64,000 nt of DNA from Eledone cirrhosa (taxonomy: Eukaryota), in contig OZ024751.1 in assembly GCA_964016885.1 (NCBI GenBank), positions 34,410,001-34,474,000 of the forward strand, read 5' to 3'. Made by a program: the position numbers and the translations under genes. This document shows, in pieces, positions 3,360-17,589 of the stretch. Numbering within the stretch: the first letter of the stretch is position 1; every line of letters starts with the position of its first letter. The notes under the pieces are model-generated. The model had not been told where the DNA came from, did no database searches, and saw nothing but the letters and a program-made list of their open reading frames with translations.

Positions 3360-3490
3360 GAGATGAGTTTTATTGTAGTACAATAAAGCAATGCAGATAT
3401 CGGATAAGAAGCACTCTACAGTTTGTAGGACTGGAGTATACATAATATATAAGAACAAAAGATGGAACTCTTTTAACCATCTTTTGTTCT

Positions 3491-3593
<103 letters not shown>

Positions 3594-3638
3594 TAAACAA
3601 ATAATGAACAAACAATTCCTTATATTAAACAAAAAAAG

Positions 3639-3793
3639 TTCACTATTTAACGATCGTTTCTAGGGTATATATGTGTTATAATTGGTATGCATATTTAACA
3701 GATCTATGTACAAAATTATACAAAATTATACAAATTATCAAGATTAAATATACATACCTAACTCATATATACGCCGTCTTCAGAAATAATGAA
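3639..3793 (-). ncRNA. Type I hammerhead ribozyme near the PLE 3' end (copy 1)
   Basis: Minus strand: TTCATTATTT-CTGAAGA-[116-nt stem II]-GAA-ACGATCGT-T^AAATAGTGAA; 10-bp stem I, palindromic stem III, GUU triplet. Confidence 0.85.
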
Positions 3794-4947
3794 GTATATT
3801 TATTGATAATAATAACAATTCAAAATATCAGTTCAAAATTGACCAATGAAAACACAAAGGGTTAAAAGCAGTTTGGTGTGTGTATATACATGTAAAAACC
3901 TTACACATATTTTACAATAATGTGTGTATAATTTGTATGTGCATACTAAAAAGATGGATGCAAACACAAAATTTCAAGGTTAATATCTCTGTAAGCTTAA
4001 TGCGCTGATAAGATACGCAATGATACTTATGGAGTCAAGCATATAAATATATTTTTTTCATACTCACACATATCAGTATAATCACACACACATGTGCGTA
4101 TATGCATAAATATACACATAACCACGAACATACAAACACACACACTCCCCCACTCACATTTATATATGTGGATATAAAATCATAAGCAAATAGAAATTAA
4201 GTCACTCACATAAAAACACTGGCACACACATTTCAAGATCAAGATACAGAAATTAGGTGGGAGGGGGGGGGGGGAGGGGTCAGTATTAGATTGTCAGACC
4301 AGACTGCCTAATATAAATGTATCTATAAATTAAGAAAAATAAAAAAATAAAAACAATAAAATATAATAAATATAATATAATGTACATACACATACAGATA
4401 TACAAACACATACATACATGTACGCGCACATAGAGATATTTACACATACATACATACACACATACCTATACAGTCATACACACACATACATTTACACGAA
4501 CATATACATACACATATAAAAAGATATAAATACACACACACTCACGCGCAACACATACACACATACACATATATATATACATATATATATATATATACAC
4601 ATATATACACACACACATAGACTCATATATATATATATACATATACATACATATATATAAACATATATATCCACACACTCATACCACCATAAATACACAT
4701 ACAAACACCCACATGTATATATATATATATATATACATATCCACATACACACACGTACACATATATATATATATACATATATACACATACATATATATAT
4801 ATACACACACATAAAAAACAGACATGCACATATATATATATATATATATATATTTCATTACTCTTATATATACACATAGTATATATACATACACAACCTC
4901 ACTTATACACATACACATAAGTTATATTACAATAATAATAAAGAATA

Positions 4948-4979
<32 letters not shown>

Positions 4980-5103
4980 ATATATACACATATATATATA
5001 TATATACATACATACATACACATACATACATACACATAAATATATACATACATAAATACACACATACGAATAAAGACATATATTCACACATAGACACCTA
5101 TAT

Positions 5104-5184
<81 letters not shown>

Positions 5185-6328
5185 CACACACACACACACA
5201 CACAGAGACACACATACACACTCACATATATATATATATATATGTGTATGTGAGTGTGCGCAAATACACATATATACACACACACATACAAACACACACA
5301 AACACATACATATGCATACGTGCACACACACACACATATATCACATAGATACGAAGATAAACATATAAATAGAGAGACATACAAATATATACAGAACCCA
5401 TATACACATACATACAAACACGCATATACATATACATACATATATACACATATATATATTCCTATATACAAGCATACACATACATACACATATATACATA
5501 TACATACACATATACATACCACACATTCACATACACATACATATATAATACATATATATACATGTATATACATACATATGTATGTACAATCATATATACA
5601 CACTCAATCTTACATTCATATTTACATGCTCATATATGTATTTTTATATTTAGAAATAAATACCAAAACCTATATAGACACCCACCTACACATATATTCA
5701 TACATATACGCTTACAAAAACAGATGATAATAGTATGGGGGAAAGGGGGGGTTTGGAGAAGGGGATCAAAGTAAATATATGTTTCAAGAAACATATAATA
5801 TTTTCCGTATCTTAATTCAATGTATGTTCTTACATATTTTCAGTGCTAGGAAATACGAAATCTATGCATCTCAAAACAAAAAATTAAACCATTAATCATA
5901 TGTTAACTAAACCAAAGATAGTCAACATATTGATTTCCAAGGTGTAAATTAGTTAGGTTTATAATATTTGAAGCAGAATTATGAAGTCAAACAGTAGTAG
6001 ATTATTAATTACATTATAACTAAATTAAAGTTAATAACGTTATGGTATCAATATTAGGAGATGAATTTAGTAATAGGGAAAAGAAACCCAAATAAAAATA
6101 AAATAAAGTATTACATCGGTAGTAGCATATAAATTATATGTTAACTAAATTAAAAATTATATATTTATTTCAATAGTATACGTTAATTAGTATATGTTAA
6201 TTAGGTATATAATACATAAAGCAGATATTGTATTTCATCAATAGCATAATATAATTATATGCAAATAAAAATCAAAATTAATACGCACACATATACATAT
6301 ACATACACATACACATATATATACATAT

Positions 6329-6381
<53 letters not shown>

Positions 6382-6944
6382 CATACACATATATACATAT
6401 ATACTCACATAAATATACATACAGATACACATACAACACACACATATATACATATACATATAGATATACATATCTTTTTCAAAAAATTGCACAGAATATA
6501 TTAACTAGGTATATATCCAAAACACATCCCATTCTATGATTACATGACATTCTGCAATTCGTCTGTACAAGGATACTAATTTCAAGCAAATTAAAATTAA
6601 AGTTTTAGGTTGATTAAAACTAAAACCAAATAATAAATATATTTCCAAAATGTATATTAATTAGGTCTATAATACTAAAAATTCTTTCTCCGTCATTGGA
6701 TACATGATATTATTTTGTTATATTTTATCTGTAAAAGAATTATAATAAAAAAAATTATAATAAAAGGTTAAAACAAATTAAAATTAATCTATAAATTAAA
6801 TTACTGAGTATATATTAGTAATATTTAAAGGTTTTTCAAAATTTATGATTACATAATATTTTCTCATCTTTAATAAAATATTAATTAAATTAAATTTATA
6901 GGTTAACTAACATTTAAATTAAATTAAATTCTAGAATAATGTTA

Positions 6945-9386
6945 TTAATTAGGTTTATAATATTTAAATGTTTTTTTTAGTTTATGATTACACGATATAA
7001 TTAATTCCTGTCTTTTATTTAATAAGATATCCCTAGACTTCATTATTTCAAATAGTTCTTGGGAACATAATCTACATTCCTTTCTATTATTTTGATAAGG
7101 GGTGGCTCTTTTGAGCACACTCCAGGTCAAATCATATTTTATATTTTTATTTTTATAACTATTGATTTTTTCTGCTAGAGATGTTGTATTAGCCAGTGCG
7201 GCATTTTTAAAGCTATGTTTGTGGGTATTATACCTTGTCTTAAAATTGTTAGAGGTAGCTCCTATATATGAGCAAATAGAATCTTTAGTTTTAACATTAC
7301 ATTTATAGACTATGTTGTTAACAAGACAATTCCCTTTTAATGGGCAGTTTGTTTTGTTTCTACAGTTACATCCTTTCGTTAATTCTGTATTTGAGGAGAT
7401 ATTATTGTTAATTTGATGTACTGGTGGTATACTTATGGTTTTCTTACATTTATATGCATTATATGCACTTATATTTTGTTTTATGTTATTTGTTGTAGAG
7501 TATGAGAATTTAACTGTAGACCTATTTAAGATTTGATGGTATTTGTGGTTTGGCGGGAAGTTTTTCTCAAGGATATAAAAAATTTTTTTAGCAATATTAT
7601 CCTTAACTTGTAAATTAAAAGGAGCATTATACCAAGTAACTCGTCTATTACGGTTTCTATGTTGTTTATTATTTTTATTATTTTTATATGTTGTATCATG
7701 ATTTTTACTAGGAGGATTAATGTTAATGATCTCACCACAACTATTTTTAGTTTTATTTGTAGATTTAGGTGTTTTATCTTTTTTATTAGGAGTTTTATTA
7801 TTAATATTTATTATAGTTGTATGATGAGTAGTTTTTTGAGGGTTACTATACTTTATATTAGAAGATTTAGTATTTTGGGGTATACTGTGGGTGGCATTTA
7901 GGTGTGTACTTTTCATTTGGTGTTTGTTGGTAATATTATGCTGTATGCTTTCAGTATTTTTAGTAGAAGGTATATACTCTAATCTATTTTTGTGGCCACT
8001 TCTATCTAGAGCTTCATTATAAAAGGTCGCATTTTTATCAAATACATCTTGGTTAGAAGAAAGGTTAGAAATTCTAAGTGATATATTATATGCAAGGTTT
8101 TTAAGGATAGATTTAGGGTGATTAGATTGTGAGTGTATGTAATGTAAGTTTTGGTTAGGTTTATGGTAAGGTTGGTATATACCCGTAGCTAAATCTAAAG
8201 TTATATCTAGGAAATTTACTACTTTACTTGTTTTTTCAAAAGTAATATTAAGATTATAATAGTCTTTAAGGAAAGTTCTAATATGCTTTTTGTTTTTTTC
8301 GATTTCTGAAAGGCTAAGGTTGTTAGAAAGAAGAAGACAGTCATCACGATATAAACCACCTTTGAGGTGGGGAAAAGAGGCATTTATGTTGAAAAGGAGA
8401 AAGAGGCCCACAAGATCAGTAATTTGGGCGGAATCACTTGAACCCATAGTAATATCAAAAAGATTACTGTATGTGTTTCTGGTCCAGTATTCATTCTGAA
8501 ATTCAATAAGTGTTTGTCTAGCATGTGTAATAATGTTAATGTCATCCGAAGTTAAATTAGATCTATTTTTAGCAAATATTAATGCTTTGTTCAGGAGTAT
8601 GGGTGATATAGAAGAATAGTAATTATCTATATCAAATTGTAGGAAAGAAGCAGAAGATTTACACCTAATATTTTTAAACCAATTAATTACCTGGGAGGTG
8701 TTTTCCCAGAGTGGTAAAATAACGTATTTTCTTATTTGTGGGATGACTCTATCTAAAATTTTTTTGCTAATTATTCCAATATCTGATTTGGAGGGACATA
8801 TAAGTCTAATAGAAGGATTAGAGTTAAAGTTAGATTTGTGATCTTTCAGGTTGAAGTGTGGTCTTTTCAATGCCAAAGGTTCAGTTCTATCTTCAATATT
8901 TAGTTTTTTTACTATGTTGTGTGTTTTGTTGTTGATGTTGGTGAGTGACACATTATTAGATTTTTTATAATTTTTTCTGAGTTCTTTAAATATGAACTCA
9001 TTATAATGTTCAATATCCATATGATACAAGTTACCAGTTTTGTCCGAGTGGACATGGATTTTTTTAGACTTTTTTAGGTCCAATAGGGTAGAATCAAGGT
9101 CCTTTTGAAAGACGGATTTATACTTTTTAAATTTGAGGTGTTTAATTAAATTAAAAAGGTCTTTCTCGAAGTCTTCAAGTAAAAAGTTGTGTGGTGGATT
9201 CTTGTAAGTGTTGAAATCATACATATATTTCCGATCTGCCTGTTTAGATTTTCTATCGAAGTGGTAGGCTCTCCATCTAACCCTTCTGATAAAATTATTA
9301 GTTTTCTGAATCATAAGGAGTAAGAAGTCGTCCTTAGAAGGTATTGGTATGTTTTTTAAGGAGGTTCCTAAATATTGTTTTTCCAT
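6945..9386 (-). CDS. PLE reverse transcriptase + C-terminal GIY-YIG endonuclease, 813 aa from the first ATG (Hydra-clade-like)
   Basis: Uninterrupted ORF with SDKTGNLY, FDIDNYYSSI (RT motif A), TMGSSDSAQITDLVG (B), GLYRDDCL (C), VNFLDITL, SNHP thumb, CNCRNKTNCPLKGNC (CxCx5Cx5C), IVY-x-YIG, FKTRY..H, CRLC, LLNKRQE. The track start at 9407 is TTG; the first ATG is at 9386. Clade assignment is from recalled motifs. Confidence 0.95.
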   Translation of the reverse strand: MEKQYLGTSLKNIPIPSKDDFLLLMIQKTNNFIRRVRWRAYHFDRKSKQADRKYMYDFNTYKNPPHNFLLEDFEKDLFNLIKHLKFKKYKSVFQKDLDSTLLDLKKSKKIHVHSDKTGNLYHMDIEHYNEFIFKELRKNYKKSNNVSLTNINNKTHNIVKKLNIEDRTEPLALKRPHFNLKDHKSNFNSNPSIRLICPSKSDIGIISKKILDRVIPQIRKYVILPLWENTSQVINWFKNIRCKSSASFLQFDIDNYYSSISPILLNKALIFAKNRSNLTSDDINIITHARQTLIEFQNEYWTRNTYSNLFDITMGSSDSAQITDLVGLFLLFNINASFPHLKGGLYRDDCLLLSNNLSLSEIEKNKKHIRTFLKDYYNLNITFEKTSKVVNFLDITLDLATGIYQPYHKPNQNLHYIHSQSNHPKSILKNLAYNISLRISNLSSNQDVFDKNATFYNEALDRSGHKNRLEYIPSTKNTESIQHNITNKHQMKSTHLNATHSIPQNTKSSNIKYSNPQKTTHHTTIININNKTPNKKDKTPKSTNKTKNSCGEIININPPSKNHDTTYKNNKNNKQHRNRNRRVTWYNAPFNLQVKDNIAKKIFYILEKNFPPNHKYHQILNRSTVKFSYSTTNNIKQNISAYNAYKCKKTISIPPVHQINNNISSNTELTKGCNCRNKTNCPLKGNCLVNNIVYKCNVKTKDSICSYIGATSNNFKTRYNTHKHSFKNAALANTTSLAEKINSYKNKNIKYDLTWSVLKRATPYQNNRKECRLCSQELFEIMKSRDILLNKRQELIISCNHKLKKTFKYYKPN

Positions 9387-9675
9387 TGTGATATGGATGA
9401 TGGACAATTGAAAGAGCTCAACTAAATGTATATGGGTTTACAAAATCATACATATATATATGTTTATACATAAATATAAAATTAATACACACATACAGTA
9501 CAAAAATACGAATATTTCCGTGAAAATAGGAGCAAAATTATGTAGATAAATCTACCAAGAGTTTACGGTAGTGTCCAATCCGTATGAAGAACTCAATGTA
9601 TTCCGGATATCATGGAAAGAAGAGATGTAATGAAAATCCACTCTCGGTGAAAGATAAACGGTATACAGAGTCAAG

Positions 9676-11036
9676 ATAAAATATTAAACAAATAATGAAC
9701 AAACAATTCCTTATATTAAACAAAAAAAGTTCACTATTTAACGATCGTTTCTAGGGTATATATGTGTTATAATTGGTATGCATATTTAACAGATCTATGT
9801 ACAAAATTATACAAAATTATACAAATTATCAAGATTAAATATACATACCTAACTCATATATACGCCGTCTTCAGAAATAATGAAGTATATTTATTGATAA
9901 TAATAACAATTCAAAATATCAGTTCAAAATTGACCAATGAAAACACAAAGGGTTAAAAGCAGTTTGGTGTGTGTATATACATGTAAAAACCTTACACATA
10001 TTTTACAATAATGTGTGTATAATTTGTATGTGCATACTAAAAAGATGGATGCAAACACAAAATTTCAAGGTTAATATCTCTGTAAGCTTAATGCGCTGAT
10101 AAGATACGCAATGATACTTATGGAGTCAAGCATATAAATATATTTTTTTCATACTCACACATATCAGTATAATCACACACACATGTGCGTATATGCATAA
10201 ATATACACATAACCACGAACATACAAACACACACACTCCCCCACTCACATTTATATATGTGGATATAAAATCATAAGCAAATAGAAATTAAGTCACTCAC
10301 ATAAAAACACTGGCACACACATTTCAAGATCAAGATACAGAAATTAGGTGGGAGGGGGGGGAGGGGTCAGTATTAGATTGTCAGACCAGACTGCCTAATA
10401 TAAATGTATCTATAAATTAAGAAAAATAAAAAAATAAAAACAATAAAATATAATAAATATAATATAATGTACATACACATACAGATATACAAACACATAC
10501 ATACATGTACGCGCACATAGAGATATTTACACATACATACATACACACATACCTATACAGTCATACACACACATACATTTACACGAACATATACATACAC
10601 ATATAAAAAGATATAAATACACACACACTCACGCGCAACACATACACACATACACATATATATATACATATATATATATATATACACATATATACACACA
10701 CACATAGACTCATATATATATATATACATATACATACATATATATAAACATATATATCCACACACTCATACCACCATAAATACACATACAAACACCCACA
10801 TGTATATATATATATATATATACATATCCACATACACACACGTACACATATATATATATATACATATATACACATACATATATATATATACACACACATA
10901 AAAAACAGACATGCACATATATATATATATATATATATATTTCATTACTCTTATATATACACATAGTATATATACATACACAACCTCACTTATACACATA
11001 TACACATAAGTTATATTACAATAATAATAAAGAATA

Positions 11037-11068
<32 letters not shown>

Positions 11069-11223
11069 ATATATACACATATATATATATATATACATAC
11101 ATACATACACATACATACATACACATAAATATATACATACATAAATACACACATACGAATAAAGACATATATTCACACATAGACACCTATATACACATAT
11201 ATATATATATATATATATATATC

Positions 11224-11271
<48 letters not shown>

Positions 11272-12417
11272 CACACACACACACACACACAGAGACACAC
11301 ATACACACTCACATATATATATATATATATGTGTATGTGAGTGTGCGCAAATACACATATATATACACACACACATACAAACACACACAAACACATACAT
11401 ATGCATACGTGCACACACACACACATATATCACATAGATACGAAGATAAACATATAAATAGAGAGACATACAAATATATACAGAACCCATATACACATAC
11501 ATACAAACACGCATATACATATACATACATATATACACATATATATATTCCTATATACAAGCATACACATACATACACATATATACATATACATACACAT
11601 ATACATACCACACATTCACATACACATACATATATAATACATATATATACATATATATACATACATATGTATGTACAATCATATATACACACTCAATCTT
11701 ACATTCATATTTACATGCTCATATATGTATTTTTATATTTAGAAATAAATACCAAAACCTATATAGACACCCACCTACACATATATTCATACATATACGC
11801 TTACAAAAACAGATGATAATAGTATGGGGGAAAGGGGGGGTTTGGAGAAGGGGATCAAAGTAAATATATGTTTCAAGAAACATATAATATTTTCCGTATC
11901 TTAATTCAATGTATGTTCTTACATATTTTCAGTGCTAGGAAATACGAAATCTATGCATCTCAAAACAAAAAATTAAACCATTAATCATATGTTAACTAAA
12001 CCAAAGATAGTCAACATATTGATTTCCAAGGTGTAAATTAGTTAGGTTTATAATATTTGAAGCAGAATTATGAAGTCAAACAGTAGTAGATTATTAATTA
12101 CATTATAACTAAATTAAAGTTAATAACGTTATGGTATCAATATTAGGAGATGAATTTAGTAATAGGGAAAAGAAACCCAAATAAAAATAAAATAAAGTAT
12201 TACATCGGTAGTAGCATATAAATTATATGTTAACTAAATTAAAAATTATATATTTATTTCAATAGTATACGTTAATTAGTATATGTTAATTAGGTATATA
12301 ATACATAAAGCAGATATTGTATTTCATCAATAGCATAATATAATTATATGCAAATAAAAATCAAAATTAATACGCACACATATACATATACATACACATA
12401 CACATATATATACATAT

Positions 12418-12470
<53 letters not shown>

Positions 12471-13001
12471 CATACACATATATACATATATACTCACATA
12501 AATATACATACAGATACACATACAACACACACATATATACATATACATATAGATATACATATCTTTTTCAAAAAATTGCACAGAATATATTAACTAGGTA
12601 TATATCCAAAACACATCCCATTCTATGATTACATGACATTCTGCAATTCGTCTGTACAAGGATACTAATTTCAAGCAAATTAAAATTAAAGTTTTAGGTT
12701 GATTAAAACTAAAACCAAATAATAAATATATTTCCAAAATGTATATTAATTAGGTCTATAATACTAAAAATTCTTTCTCCGTCATTGGATACATGATATT
12801 ATTTTGTTATATTTTATCTGTAAAAGAATTATAATAAAAAAAATTATAATAAAAGGTTAAAACAAATTAAAATTAATCTATAAATTAAATTACTGAGTAT
12901 ATATTAGTAATATTTAAAGGTTTTTCAAAATTTATGATTACATAATATTTTCTCATCTTTAATAAAATATTAATTAAATTAAATTTATAGGTTAACTAAC
13001 A
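9676..13001 (-). repeat. Upstream direct repeat (pseudo-LTR) of the PLE 3' region, ~3.3 kb
   Basis: Near-identical to 3585-6912; differences seen are mainly microsatellite/homopolymer lengths and a few substitutions. Confidence 0.95.
9730..9884 (-). ncRNA. Type I hammerhead ribozyme (copy 2, upstream of the ORF)
   Basis: Same sequence as 3639-3793, offset 6091. Confidence 0.85.
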
Positions 13002-13304
13002 GAAAAAATCAATAGTTATAAAAATAAAAATATAAAATATGATTTGACCTGGAGTGTGCTCAAAAGAGCCACCCCTTATCAAAATAATAGAAAGGAATGT
13101 AGATTATGTTCCCAAGAACTATTTGAAATAATGAAGTCTAGGGATATCTTATTAAATAAAAGACAGGAATTAATTATATCGTGTAATCATAAACTAAAAA
13201 AAACATTTAAATATTATAAACCTAATTAATAACATTATTCTAGAATTTAATTTAATTTAAATGTTAGTTAACCTATAAATTTAATATATGTATATATGTG
13301 TATG

Positions 13305-13357
<53 letters not shown>

Positions 13358-14503
13358 ATATGTATATATATGTGTATGTGTATGTATATGTATATGTGTG
13401 CGTATTAATTTTGATTTTTATTTGCATATAATTATATTATGCTATTGATGAAATACAATATCTGCTTTATGTATTATATACCTAATTAACATATACTAAT
13501 TAACGTATACTATTGAAATAAATATATAATTTTTAATTTAGTTAACATATAATTTATATGCTACTACCGATGTAATACTTTATTTTATTTTTATTTGGGT
13601 TTCTTTTCCCTATTACTAAATTCATCTCCTAATATTGATACCATAACGTTATTAACTTTAATTTAGTTATAATGTAATTAATAATCTACTACTGTTTGAC
13701 TTCATAATTCTGCTTCAAATATTATAAACCTAACTAATTTACACCTTGGAAATCAATATGTTGACTATCTTTGGTTTAGTTAACATATGATTAATGGTTT
13801 AATTTTTTGTTTTGAGATGCATAGATTTCGTATTTCCTAGCACTGAAAATATGTAAGAACATACATTGAATTAAGATACGGAAAATATTATATGTTTCTT
13901 GAAACATATATTTACTTTGATCCCCTTCTCCAAACCCCCCCTTTCCCCCATACTATTATCATCTGTTTTTGTAAGCGTATATGTATGAATATATGTGTAG
14001 GTGGGTGTCTATATAGGTTTTGGTATTTATTTCTAAATATAAAAATACATATATGAGCATGTAAATATGAATGTAAGATTGAGTGTGTATATATGATTGT
14101 ACATACATATGTATGTATATATATGTATATATATGTATTATATATGTATGTGTATGTGAATGTGTGGTATGTATATGTGTATGTATATGTATATATGTGT
14201 ATGTATGTGTATGCTTGTATATAGGAATATATATATGTGTATATATGTATGTATATGTATATGCGTGTTTGTATGTATGTGTATATGGGTTCTGTATATA
14301 TTTGTATGTCTCTCTATTTATATGTTTATCTTCGTATCTATGTGATATATGTGTGTGTGTGTGCACGTATGCATATGTATGTGTTTGTGTGTGTTTGTAT
14401 GTGTGTGTGTATATATATGTGTATTTGCGCACACTCACATACACATATATATATATATATATGTGAGTGTGTATGTGTGTCTCTGTGTGTGTGTGTGTGT
14501 GTG

Positions 14504-14553
<50 letters not shown>

Positions 14554-14708
14554 GATATATATATATATATATATATATATGTGTATATAGGTGTCTATGT
14601 GTGAATATATGTCTTTATTCGTATGTGTGTATTTATGTATGTATATATTTATGTGTATGTATGTATGTGTATGTATGTATGTATATATATATATATATGT
14701 GTATATAT

Positions 14709-14740
<32 letters not shown>

Positions 14741-15085
14741 TATTCTTTATTATTATTGTAATATAACTTATGTGTATATGTGTATAAGTGAGGTTGTGTA
14801 TGTATATATACTATGTGTATATATAAGAGTAATGAAATATATATATATATATATATATATGTGCATGTCTGTTTTTTATGTGTGTGTATATATATATATG
14901 TATGTGTATATATGTATATATATATATATGTGTACGTGTGTGTATGTGGATATGTATATATATATATATATATACATGTGGGTGTTTGTATGTGTATTTA
15001 TGGTGGTATGAGTGTGTGGATATATATGTTTATATATATGTATGTATATGTATATATATATATATGAGTCTATGTGTGTGTGTAT

Positions 15086-15123
<38 letters not shown>

Positions 15124-16234
15124 GTGTATGTGTGTATGTGTTGCGCGTGAGTGTGTGTGTATTTATATCTTTTTATATGTGTATGTATATGTTCGTGTAA
15201 ATGTATGTGTGTGTATGACTGTATAGGTATGTGTGTATGTATGTATGTGTAAATATCTCTATGTGCGCGTACATGTATGTATGTGTTTGTATATCTGTAT
15301 GTGTATGTACATTATATTATATTTATTATATTTTATTGTTTTTATTTTTTTATTTTTCTTAATTTATAGATACATTTATATTAGGCAGTCTGGTCTGACA
15401 ATCTAATACTGACCCCTCCCCCCCCTCCCACCTAATTTCTGTATCTTGATCTTGAAATGTGTGTGCCAGTGTTTTTATGTGAGTGACTTAATTTCTATTT
15501 GCTTATGATTTTATATCCACATATATAAATGTGAGTGGGGGAGTGTGTGTGTTTGTATGTTCGTGGTTATGTGTATATTTATGCATATACGCACATGTGT
15601 GTGTGATTATACTGATATGTGTGAGTATGAAAAAAATATATTTATATGCTTGACTCCATAAGTATCATTGCGTATCTTATCAGCGCATTAAGCTTACAGA
15701 GATATTAACCTTGAAATTTTGTGTTTGCATCCATCTTTTTAGTATGCACATACAAATTATACACACATTATTGTAAAATATGTGTAAGGTTTTTACATGT
15801 ATATACACACACCAAACTGCTTTTAACCCTTTGTGTTTTCATTGGTCAATTTTGAACTGATATTTTGAATTGTTATTATTATCAATAAATATACTTCATT
15901 ATTTCTGAAGACGGCGTATATATGAGTTAGGTATGTATATTTAATCTTGATAATTTGTATAATTTTGTATAATTTTGTACATAGATCTGTTAAATATGCA
16001 TACCAATTATAACACATATATACCCTAGAAACGATCGTTAAATAGTGAACTTTTTTTGTTTAATATAAGGAATTGTTTGTTCATTATTTGTTTAATATTT
16101 TATCTTGACTCTGTATACCGTTTATCTTTCACCGAGAGTGGATTTTCATTACATCTCTTCTTTCCATGATATCCGGAATACATTGAGTTCTTCATACGGA
16201 TTGGACACTACCGTAAACTCTTGGTAGATTTATC

Positions 16235-16240
<6 letters not shown>
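13001..16240 (+). repeat. Inverted, 5'-truncated PLE copy with a ~490-bp internal deletion
   Basis: Starts inside the endonuclease coding region (ORF 13044-13229 repeats the protein C-terminus), jumps at 13285/13286, ends in (TA)n at 16240. Confidence 0.93.
15895..16049 (+). ncRNA. Type I hammerhead ribozyme (copy 3, inverted arm)
   Basis: Stem I 15895-15904/16040-16049; CTGAAGA 15905-15911; GAAA 16028-16031; predicted cleavage after 16039. Confidence 0.85.
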
Positions 16241-16265
<25 letters not shown>

Positions 16266-16699
16266 CCTATAGGACGTTATAATTGTATTTTCATGTTATA
16301 CGTGGCTTGAGGAATGGCTGGGCTCTCCCTCTTTGGGAATTGAGATTTTTTTCTAAAGTTTCAAGATTATTGCACTTCCTCGCTTCAGCATTTGCCGATC
16401 TTAATCAACGTTAAATGTTAATGATTTTTGCTACGTGGTACCATATAAGTCTGCTAAAAACTCAGTCTTAATGGAAGTATGATAGTTATTCTGTATATTT
16501 TTTTAACCTAATTAGATTGTTCTCAGCAAAATATTAGATATGTTATTTCCTATGATATTGACATCACTCTGGGCTCTTGGATATTTAACTCTAATCCTCT
16601 CATAGAGCTATCATAGAGCCACATAATTGATAATAATTATATATCGATCTCTTTTCAGTTCAATTCCCGGTGTCGCGTTGCATTTCTTTATGCAAGACA

Positions 16700-16934
16700 C
16701 TTTATTTCACGTTGCTCCAATCCACTCAGATAGCAAAAATGTTTTGTACCTCTACTTCAAATGGGCAAATATACCACTTCTGTGTCACAATGAATCTCCC
16801 TGAGAACTCCGTTAAGGATACACGTCTCTGTGAATTATTCAGCACTGGTACATTAATTTCACGAGCTCAGGATATTCCGTATTCCGTTAATCGTATCTAC
16901 TCGAACACTCGTCATCGTAACCGACGGAGTACCA
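16700..16934 (-). mobile_element. Degenerate copy of an abundant interspersed repeat
   Basis: Minus strand ...GAAATTAATGTACCAGTGCTGAATAATTCACAGAGACGTGTATCCTTAACGGAGTTCTC...; homologous pieces at ~39880-39947 (-) and ~21855-21930 (+). Confidence 0.55.
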
Positions 16935-16989
16935 TATATATATATATATATATAATATCGTTTAGATGTATTTAGATGCTTATTGCGAA

Positions 16990-17091
16990 TCGGCCTGTTA
17001 CACGCGTTTCGCAGAGGATTGGTGCAGGGTCACCTATAGAAGTTATAGAACCGACTCCATTATCGATCTGCTCTTCAGACCGGAGATCCGA
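16990..17091 (-). ncRNA. Solo type I hammerhead ribozyme in a ~145-bp insert between (TA)n tracts
   Basis: Minus strand: TCGG-ATCT-CCGGT-CTGAAGA-GCAGA...TCTGC-GAAAC-GCGT-GTA^ACAGG-CCGA; complete core, G-C closing pair of stem II, bulged stem I. Confidence 0.8.
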
Positions 17092-17589
17092 CTACAAATA
17101 TATATACATATATATATATGTGTGTGTGTAAGTGAGAGTGTGCTCCAGGAACCCTACAACTATAACGTAAGCAAATCTAACTTTGAGAAAACTACAATGC
17201 CAGATAACACAGAAAAGGTGATAAAATGAAAATACAACCTCCTAAAATATCTGTTTGTTTAGGTGTGTGTTTGTTGAGATAAGACGACAGAGTGTAATCT
17301 AGAATGTTCTCTGTAATAAATATTATTGTATTGTTTCCATAAAACACATGTAGAAATGGTATTAACAAGGAAGTGATGTGTTTTTGTGTTCCATTTCTTC
17401 TTTCTTTTATTGGAGATTTTCTTAGAGTTACCATTTTTTTTTGTTTCTTATTTCTTCCGTCACTTCATTGAATGAGAATAATAATAGAAGTGTGGAGTAG
17501 GAATATTTTTAATACTGAAATAAATAGCTTTTTCAAGTTGTCTCTTTTTGTTCGATGCTAAACAGGAAAAAAAGTGTCGTTAGGAATGA

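Follow-up and report, generated by a model that had tools for sequence, protein, structure and literature searches.

A type I hammerhead motif with a 116-nucleotide domain II in the pseudo-LTRs of a young Penelope-like element from Eledone cirrhosa

Hammerhead motifs have been described in several groups of Penelope-like elements (PLEs). For metazoan PLEs, Cervera and de la Peña (2014; PMC4209133) reported ribozymes that cleave weakly as dimers. The Hydra clade is defined by an RWK-like motif, DKT, a CxCX5C linker, the absence of CCHH, CxxC and CxH near the C-terminus, and insertion into (TA)n (Craig et al. 2021; PMC8557442). In that study core spacers of 7-17 nucleotides (nt) were searched and half cores at 35-50 nt were noted, while by our own count domain II spans 12-26 nt in the 26 Hydra rows of its File S2. 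U.U at positions 10.1/11.1 is common in File S2 and is tolerated in active natural ribozymes (Perreault 2011), and the tertiary contact between loops I and II that fast hammerheads have is described as absent from the minimal forms in PLEs (PMC7761336). The ribozyme of the anole PLE PAc was found to be protein-assisted and unneeded for insertion in vitro (Frangieh et al. 2024; PMC11167929), and Penelope of Drosophila virilis has an internal promoter and an intron (Schostak 2008). Here we describe a hammerhead motif with a domain II of 116 nt, which is present in three copies in a PLE of the Hydra clade. The element lies in a window of 64,000 nt from Eledone cirrhosa (assembly GCA_964016885.1, contig OZ024751.1, positions 34,410,001 to 34,474,000, forward strand), and all coordinates below are positions within this window.

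The three hammerhead copies, two direct and one inverted, are identical across 155 nt, and self-BLAST placed all of them in pseudo-long terminal repeats (pLTRs). Copy c1 (3639-3793, minus strand) has C3 at 3783, domain II at 3776-3661 and H17 at 3649. Copy c2 (9730-9884, minus strand), located upstream of the open reading frame (ORF), has C3 at 9874, domain II at 9867-9752 and H17 at 9740, whereas c3 (15895-16049) lies on the plus strand with C3 at 15905, domain II at 15912-16027, G12 at 16028 and H17 at 16039. In each copy the core elements CTGAAGA and GAAA are separated by exactly 116 nt, and C3UGANGA9 is followed by G12AAA15.1 with the open ends in stem I, which is the type I topology. Stem I, of 10 base pairs (bp) including one G-U, adjoins the core. 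Domain III consists of a palindrome of 8 nt, ACGATCGT, behind which comes a GUU triplet, which supplies both the A15.1-U16.1 pair and an NUH site whose H is not G. The rod-like domain II comprises a basal helix with compensatory changes, a middle helix and a conserved distal internal loop, and both the fold and the covariation place helix II beside the core. Almost no variation occurs in the 5′ arm of the middle helix, which includes a donor-like AG/GTATGT at 15931. At the base of domain II, positions 10.1/11.1 form a C.A mismatch, followed inward by G-U, G-C and a C.C mismatch. The usual R10.1-Y11.1 (G-C) closing pair, which we treated as a typical rather than an absolute feature of hammerheads, is thus missing. 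C.A is found in 33 of the 38 motifs of the motif family numbered 0 (see below), in which G-U or G-C occurs only one step in from the core, and C..A is also seen in short-arm motifs of the same genome.

Folding of the motif region gave -43.8 kcal/mol, compared with a mean of -26.2 for shuffled sequences (z -5.08; 0/200 shuffles), and the long rod and its named helices, as proposed in the initial annotation, were recovered in both the minimum free energy (MFE) and the centroid structure. When the whole window was scanned on both strands with a relaxed hammerhead pattern, 18 candidate rows were listed, and pairing at 10 or more of 12 positions in stem I was confined to c1, c2 and c3. Rfam returned no hammerhead match in 15800-17200 at E ≤10, only microsatellite microRNA noise; of its 224 matches for 1-25000, the 150 that were listed included no hammerhead. 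Such a miss by covariance models is expected because of the 116-nt insert. In every sequence feature that we tested, except the usual G10.1-C11.1 pair, the motif agrees with a type I hammerhead. The initial annotation had described three copies of a PLE hammerhead with an expanded domain II, and the copies, their core, the 10-bp stem I, the palindromic stem III and the GUU site were all found in the places given there; the anatomy and the family comparison bear out the classification. Its expectation that searches with a short stem II would miss the variant was likewise confirmed by the Rfam result and by the published spacer range.

The motif resides in an insertion (3585..16240) that combines a partial tandem PLE, on the minus strand, with an inverted, 5′-truncated partner and has (TA)n on both sides. 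An intact ORF of 813 amino acids (aa; 6945..9386, minus strand) carries the motifs of a reverse transcriptase (RT) and, at its C-terminus, those of an endonuclease (EN) of the GIY-YIG type in a single frame, as in EN+ PLEs. Its motifs are RWR (residue 37), SDKT (114), YRDD (346), CxCX5C (673), VYK..YIG (693), CxxC (771) and CxH (799), with the Hydra-clade spellings RWR, SDKT, CNCRNKTNC, CRLC and CNH, no CCHH, and one Cys inside the GIY-YIG-like core. On this motif set and the (TA)n insertion, with reference proteins compared by eye, we assign the element to the Hydra clade. Pfam and PDB searches with the 813-aa ORF gave nothing significant; its homologue P0001 gave a weak Pfam GIY-YIG match (E 0.012). 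Membership of Naiad was rejected because the endonuclease is C-terminal. A non-LTR retrozyme, which consists of 150-400-nt non-coding tandem repeats with a hammerhead per unit (2026 retrozyme preprint; PMC7761336), was also rejected, as the unit here measures 6091 nt and contains an ORF. The microsatellite-rich 3′ region that forms the downstream pLTR (3585..6912, minus strand) ends 64 nt beyond the predicted c1 cut. The upstream pLTR (9676..13001, minus strand), a 5′-truncated tandem copy containing c2, forms with it a 3.3-kb direct repeat of 99.64% identity. The inverted partner (12996..16240, plus strand) comprises the ORF end (7178-6886), an internal deletion and the 3′ region, and ends 201 nt beyond the predicted c3 cut. 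This partial tandem pLTR, with an inverted 5′-truncated partner and a tail at one end, is the layout of PLEs. The triple arrangement was found again at other loci (e.g. L006-L008), so it does not stem from a local assembly artefact.

The 3.0-Gb genome contains 744 candidate matches to the ribozyme region and 688 exact matches to a 33-mer, and the first 30 ribozyme copies fetched were all identical, which made them uninformative for covariation. In addition, 122 scored genomic matches to the ORF showed 98-100% identity, most with a full open frame. By these sequence measures, the element family is young and high-copy. Patterns of the core that allowed a domain II of 101-130 nt gave 12,877 matches against 980 for the reversed control, and most of the first 100 matches listed belonged to the superfamily of the window. 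A stricter pattern with a domain II of 71-100 nt gave 3,185 matches (control 301), and a short domain II of 3-30 nt gave 12,802 (control 1,476). The count for 31-60 nt was not used, being inflated by a high-copy coding repeat (G000:C1:225159 and many similar places; by eye a long interspersed nuclear element RT frame) that fits the core pattern by chance, and reversed-pattern controls and counts alone do not therefore prove function. From the genomic loci, all but L121, we extracted 134 distinct motifs in 30 clusters. Eleven clusters had at least two members (one nested double match was dropped), and in 10 of these domain II measured ∼45-116 nt. Families 0, 1, 2 and 8 have a window-like endonuclease or ORF upstream on the same strand (loci L071, L074, L075, L078, L079, L101, L109 and L117, together with L123 at 72% identity, L143, L146, L149 and L161). 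A metagenome scan yielded a single related contig, the only one from outside the genome, with a domain II of 10 nt. Judged by these comparisons, the long-arm hammerhead is a genome-wide trait and not a one-off.

Selection on hammerhead features was apparent from several comparisons. The patterns used to collect the loci left H17 free; nevertheless, this position was A in 79, C in 33, T in 21 and G in only one of the 134 distinct motifs. The first three base pairs of stem I were Watson-Crick at 32 of 33 positions over 11 families, compared with a permuted mean of 11.6 (0/20,000), and domain III was self-complementary in several spellings across families. Within family 0, 86.8% of cells paired in 21 sequences, compared with 23-56% in slid controls, and 25 cells showed two-sided changes against 9.8 in shuffled data (0/500), although these sequences are related, so that the counts are not probabilities. 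In alignment A1, MAFFT had misaligned the core in four of 26 sequences; for alignment A3 these four and the divergent L138 were dropped, L124-, L075 and L101 were excluded, and L099, L102 and L103 were added. When anchored at the core, the basal helix of domain II showed joint A-U/G-C swaps at positions 2, 5, 6, 7 and 10. The strand opposite the nearly invariant 5′ arm of the middle helix varied mostly by G-U. Together, the core, stem I, H17 and the basal pairing of domain II are conserved and covarying in these alignments, which points to selection on the hammerhead and accords with the conservation among family members that the initial annotation had set as a test.

The ends of the insertions were informative as to the RNA that is reverse-transcribed. 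Among 30 copies, 13 ended at +64 and 13 at +201 beyond the cut, in (TA)n, so that all 26 outer ends lay at one of these two positions; the remaining four ran on into the ORF. The native U17 preceded the 3′ product in 1,087 copies and another base in four, of which two were GUA variants and two started within a few ambiguous bases of the cut. Copies beginning near the cut thus numbered at most two of about 1,090, approximately the background truncation rate, and among these copies there was no excess starting at the cut site. Since insertions end downstream of the cut without such an excess, the reverse-transcribed template was intact across it. On the other side, among the first 30 copies, chosen by their 3′ half alone, 20 reached 60 nt or more upstream of the core, two ended in domain II and eight ended at -2 to -9, the latter being 8 of the 10 copies that ended within 173 nt. 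With 29 added copies, which were hand-picked and favoured close inverted pairs, 23 of 28 short copies ended in the -2 to -9 window, 14 of them exactly at -7 and none at -10 to -59. Family 3 showed the same -7 terminus. In c3 the truncated copies would start at the A that closes 15884..15898 (plus strand), where AATAAA is followed by 8 nt and then this A at -7. AATAAA lay 8 nt before the -7 A in 34 of 36 read-through copies. The TC-A context of this A is one that we take to be initiator-like, and the terminus may represent either a transcription start or a 3′-processing cut. By this pattern the 5′ end of the element RNA (9881 for c2) likely lies inside stem I, with the ribozyme as a 5′ leader. 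Close inverted pairs were present among short-arm motifs too, and at L252, L261, L262 and L267 nearly the same 30-nt foreign sequence was joined to the -7 end, which suggests a preferred target or a template switch to a different repeat that has ATT units at its end.

Several of these properties are shared with published systems. Like Hydra-clade PLEs (PMC8557442), the element has the clade motifs, the (TA)n target, the tandem-plus-inverted layout and the type I topology, and its hammerhead resembles theirs in the 8-9-nt self-complementary domain III, the often mismatched base of stem II and the use of GUU, GUA or GUC. In contrast to the 12-26 nt of those hammerheads, domain II measures 116 nt here and 45-116 nt in sister families; moreover, the unit is 6.1 kb rather than <3 kb, and between the two ends the tail measures 137 nt rather than 30-40. 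With the metazoan PLE type I hammerheads of PMC4209133 the motif shares the pLTR location, an extra nucleotide after A9, a palindromic helix III and a predicted dimer activity. The helix II described there as 'larger than usual', however, has 6-8 bp and a conserved G10.1-C11.1, compared with a rod of ∼40 bp on a C.A base here. The PLE-X1 hammerheads of spike moss, annotated in Craig File S2 as 'deviates from canonical structure', are likewise natural PLE hammerheads with an enlarged domain II (∼50 nt), but they occur in single families of EN-minus plant elements and have a short stem with a big loop, at half the length. The insertion ends match those of PAc, a Poseidon element of Anolis (PMC11167929), where two RT starts downstream of the ribozyme set both insertion ends and the RT substrate is unprocessed RNA; PAc, however, belongs to another clade, and its ORF starts in stem II, whereas the ribozyme here lies ∼350 nt upstream of the ATG. 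A long arm went unmentioned in the available portions of PMC6765202, PMC7229834, PMC7761336, PMC10085705 and the 2026 retrozyme preprint, and our literature searches turned up no report of a PLE hammerhead with a domain II near 100 nt, although Lunse 2017 and Arkhipova 2017, which stood outside the comparison, could hold such cases. Six domain III motifs were not found in the available text of the Craig supplement, where line breaks may hide matches. Engineered hammerheads tolerate large inserts in stem II, which lowers the surprise of a long arm.

Taken together, we consider it probable that the motif is a type I hammerhead with a 116-nt rod-like domain II in the pLTR of a young, high-copy Hydra-clade PLE, likely acting as a 5′ leader and as a weak, conditional self-cleaver assisted by dimerisation or protein, with the reverse-transcribed RNA left intact at the cut. 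Under this model the A located 7 nt upstream of C3 would become the first base of the RNA, either by transcription or by 3′ processing of upstream read-through RNA. The long domain II would provide a stable helix for the core and, in the invariant middle arm, further leader signals. The 2-bp palindromic domain III would make a poor monomer and favour the pairing of two ribozymes, while a decoy hairpin would sequester stem I after ∼50 nt more of transcription, leaving most RNA uncut. This predicted hairpin (16040..16089, plus strand) pairs the 3′ strand of stem I over 11 bp with a downstream near-copy of the 5′ strand, and in the window copy its strength was matched by only 6 of 1000 shuffles; it was significant in 6/14 members of family 0, 4/12 of family 3 and 2/3 of family 8. 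Reverse transcription would begin internally at +64 and +201, one site for each target strand, in (TA)n, and pass through the ribozyme. Run-off at the 5′ end would then produce many tiny inverted ribozyme-only insertions, and read-through of tandem RNA the long ones. Cleavage, when it occurs, would remove a 142-nt leader and thus be a regulatory or processing step rather than the maker of the template. Under some conditions the motif would likely still cut itself.

A number of observations weigh against this reading. Once 45 nt downstream were included, the hammerhead fold lay 5.4-5.7 kcal/mol above the MFE, and stem I had a pair probability of 0 in the predicted -7 to +201 RNA. The C.A at 10.1/11.1, the C.C mismatch and the GUU are all suboptimal for cleavage, GUU ranking as a poor triplet. 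The decoy was present in 0-1 members of each of nine other clusters tested. The distinct pairs with two-sided change in family 0 (6 vs 5.1 shuffled; 186/500) were not above expectation, RNAalifold gave no consensus structure for family 3, and only 9 of 16 family representatives folded with z ≤-2; decay after insertion likely explains the weak folds of single representatives. No window-like ORF match was obtained for most of the 40 loci in one ORF-linkage set, and no ORF link was found for families 3, 4, 6, 10 and 11 in the loci fetched. Finally, G preceded the -7 A at 12 of 47 junctions compared with a background of 14% (p 0.026, with non-independent rows), a weak cap-like sign.

The suboptimal junction and the competing folds would suit a structure that never cleaves in vivo and serves as a catalytically silent ribonucleoprotein signal, bound by RT-EN or used in packaging, or as promoter DNA. 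The template that is always intact at the cut is in line with this, and the invariant 5′ arm of the middle helix, with a partner varying mostly by G-U, points to a sequence-specific role. Nevertheless, G is avoided at H17 (1/134) and stem I pairs beside the scissile bond covary across families, both as catalysis demands, and related PLE ribozymes cleave in vitro (PMC4209133, PMC11167929), so that we regard a silent signal as unlikely. The initial annotation had instead proposed that cleavage at c2 and c1 would release an ORF-containing monomer that could circularise, and such a circle, as a rolling template for more-than-unit cDNA, had been published as a hypothesis in 2014 (PMC4209133). The geometry is correct, with the two predicted cuts 6091 nt apart and the 3′ product of c2 beginning at 9739. 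Full-unit tandem arrays exist (C2:170420817-170444623), and because religation would restore the cut, copies that span it are compatible with a circle. A circular RNA, however, lacks a 5′ end, yet the short copies have a sharp boundary at -7; no excess of copies begins at the cut, mutants of the anole PLE ribozyme insert normally, and no RNA reads ending at the cut were seen there (PMC11167929). The spacing of the cuts stands, while transposition through a monomer or circle is distinctly unlikely in view of the intact template and the linear 5′ end.

A third possibility is that domain II holds a retained 98-nt spliceosomal intron, whose splicing would remodel or disable the ribozyme in the mRNA. 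The donor AG/GTATGT would lie at +34 of the predicted RNA, which resembles the position of the D. virilis Penelope intron 46 nt after the start (Schostak 2008), the donor-like arm is nearly invariant, and an acceptor CTAG overlaps G12, such that splicing would restore GAAA behind an exon ending in G. On the other hand, splicing would leave an 18-nt domain II for which no fold is predicted (0.0 kcal/mol), families 1-4 and 11 are without the acceptor AG, and one subfamily of family 0 would not restore G12. No intron-less genomic copies were found either, a weak argument as PLEs retain introns. Four runs, made up of contigs of unrecorded kind, showed no splice joint or end and gave no evidence either way; domain II pieces from three studies do occur in them. 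We consider the intron very unlikely. A chance meeting of core-like words in an AT-rich hairpin, spread by transposition, is barely conceivable. The coding repeat does show that a high-copy sequence can fit the pattern by chance and inflate the 31-60 nt count, but the motif occupies the same position, at the 3′ end of the element, as the published Hydra-clade ribozymes, and it is found again with domain II sequences of unrelated make-up, with covarying stems and with a non-G H17; the H17 and stem I counts and the two-sided changes in family 0 contradict a chance origin. More speculatively, and on balance doubtfully, the hammerhead might belong to a multifunctional 5′ leader in which domain II has grown into a module of 50-120 nt, sometimes branched, that doubles as an internal promoter, a retained intron or an RT-binding site. 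The ribozyme would then be a folding switch between a capped, uncut template or mRNA and a decapped, cut RNA, and long-arm hammerheads may be common in invertebrates, which would explain 'ribozyme-less' PLEs such as those with the Naiad 'half cores'.

Further features were noted in and around the window. A separate hammerhead-like motif of another family (16998-17078, minus strand), with a 61-nt domain II, the domain III ACGCGTGT and a GUA triplet, lies 760 nt from the insertion; its family is older, diverged and has many genomic copies. Family 4 (L093, L108, L113, L116, L118, L122) has a branched domain II of 95-100 nt with a three-way junction and two sub-hairpins, and no ORF was seen beside it, also not between two same-strand copies 4597 nt apart. 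At L121:74-120, in a Hydra-like element from outside this genome, there is a short hammerhead in which the complement of the stem I 3′ strand comes immediately behind that strand, forming a decoy-like hairpin. The inverted partner opens with the ORF end (12996-13288, corresponding to 7178-6886), followed by a ∼480-nt jump that reflects an internal deletion or a template jump. ORF residues of about 465-560 (7700-8000) form a low-complexity stretch rich in N/K/T/H between the RT thumb and the linker, which makes the ORF about 100 aa longer than most homologues (∼700 aa). Just left of the insertion, at 3418-3497, a short hairpin-like stretch with two (TA)n runs around it was seen by eye. Microsatellites dominated a repeat search across the window, and the 3.1-kb 3′ region (4380-5700 and its copies) holds long TA/CA tracts that move with the element, so that the family spreads microsatellites.

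In this 3-Gb genome, domain II exceeds 100 nt in about half of the hammerhead-like motifs counted at the two extremes of the length range. As such a domain II is outside the spacer ranges of the published searches consulted here, ribozyme censuses and the calling of PLEs as 'ribozyme-less' may be biased. The family studied here is young, with intact ORFs and many natural arm variants, and it supplies genomic evidence on the role of PLE hammerheads, in that the cut site is unbroken in the template, and the 5′ end of the RNA apparently lies inside stem I. With it, models in which the hammerhead produces a circle, removes a leader or acts as a binding signal become directly testable.

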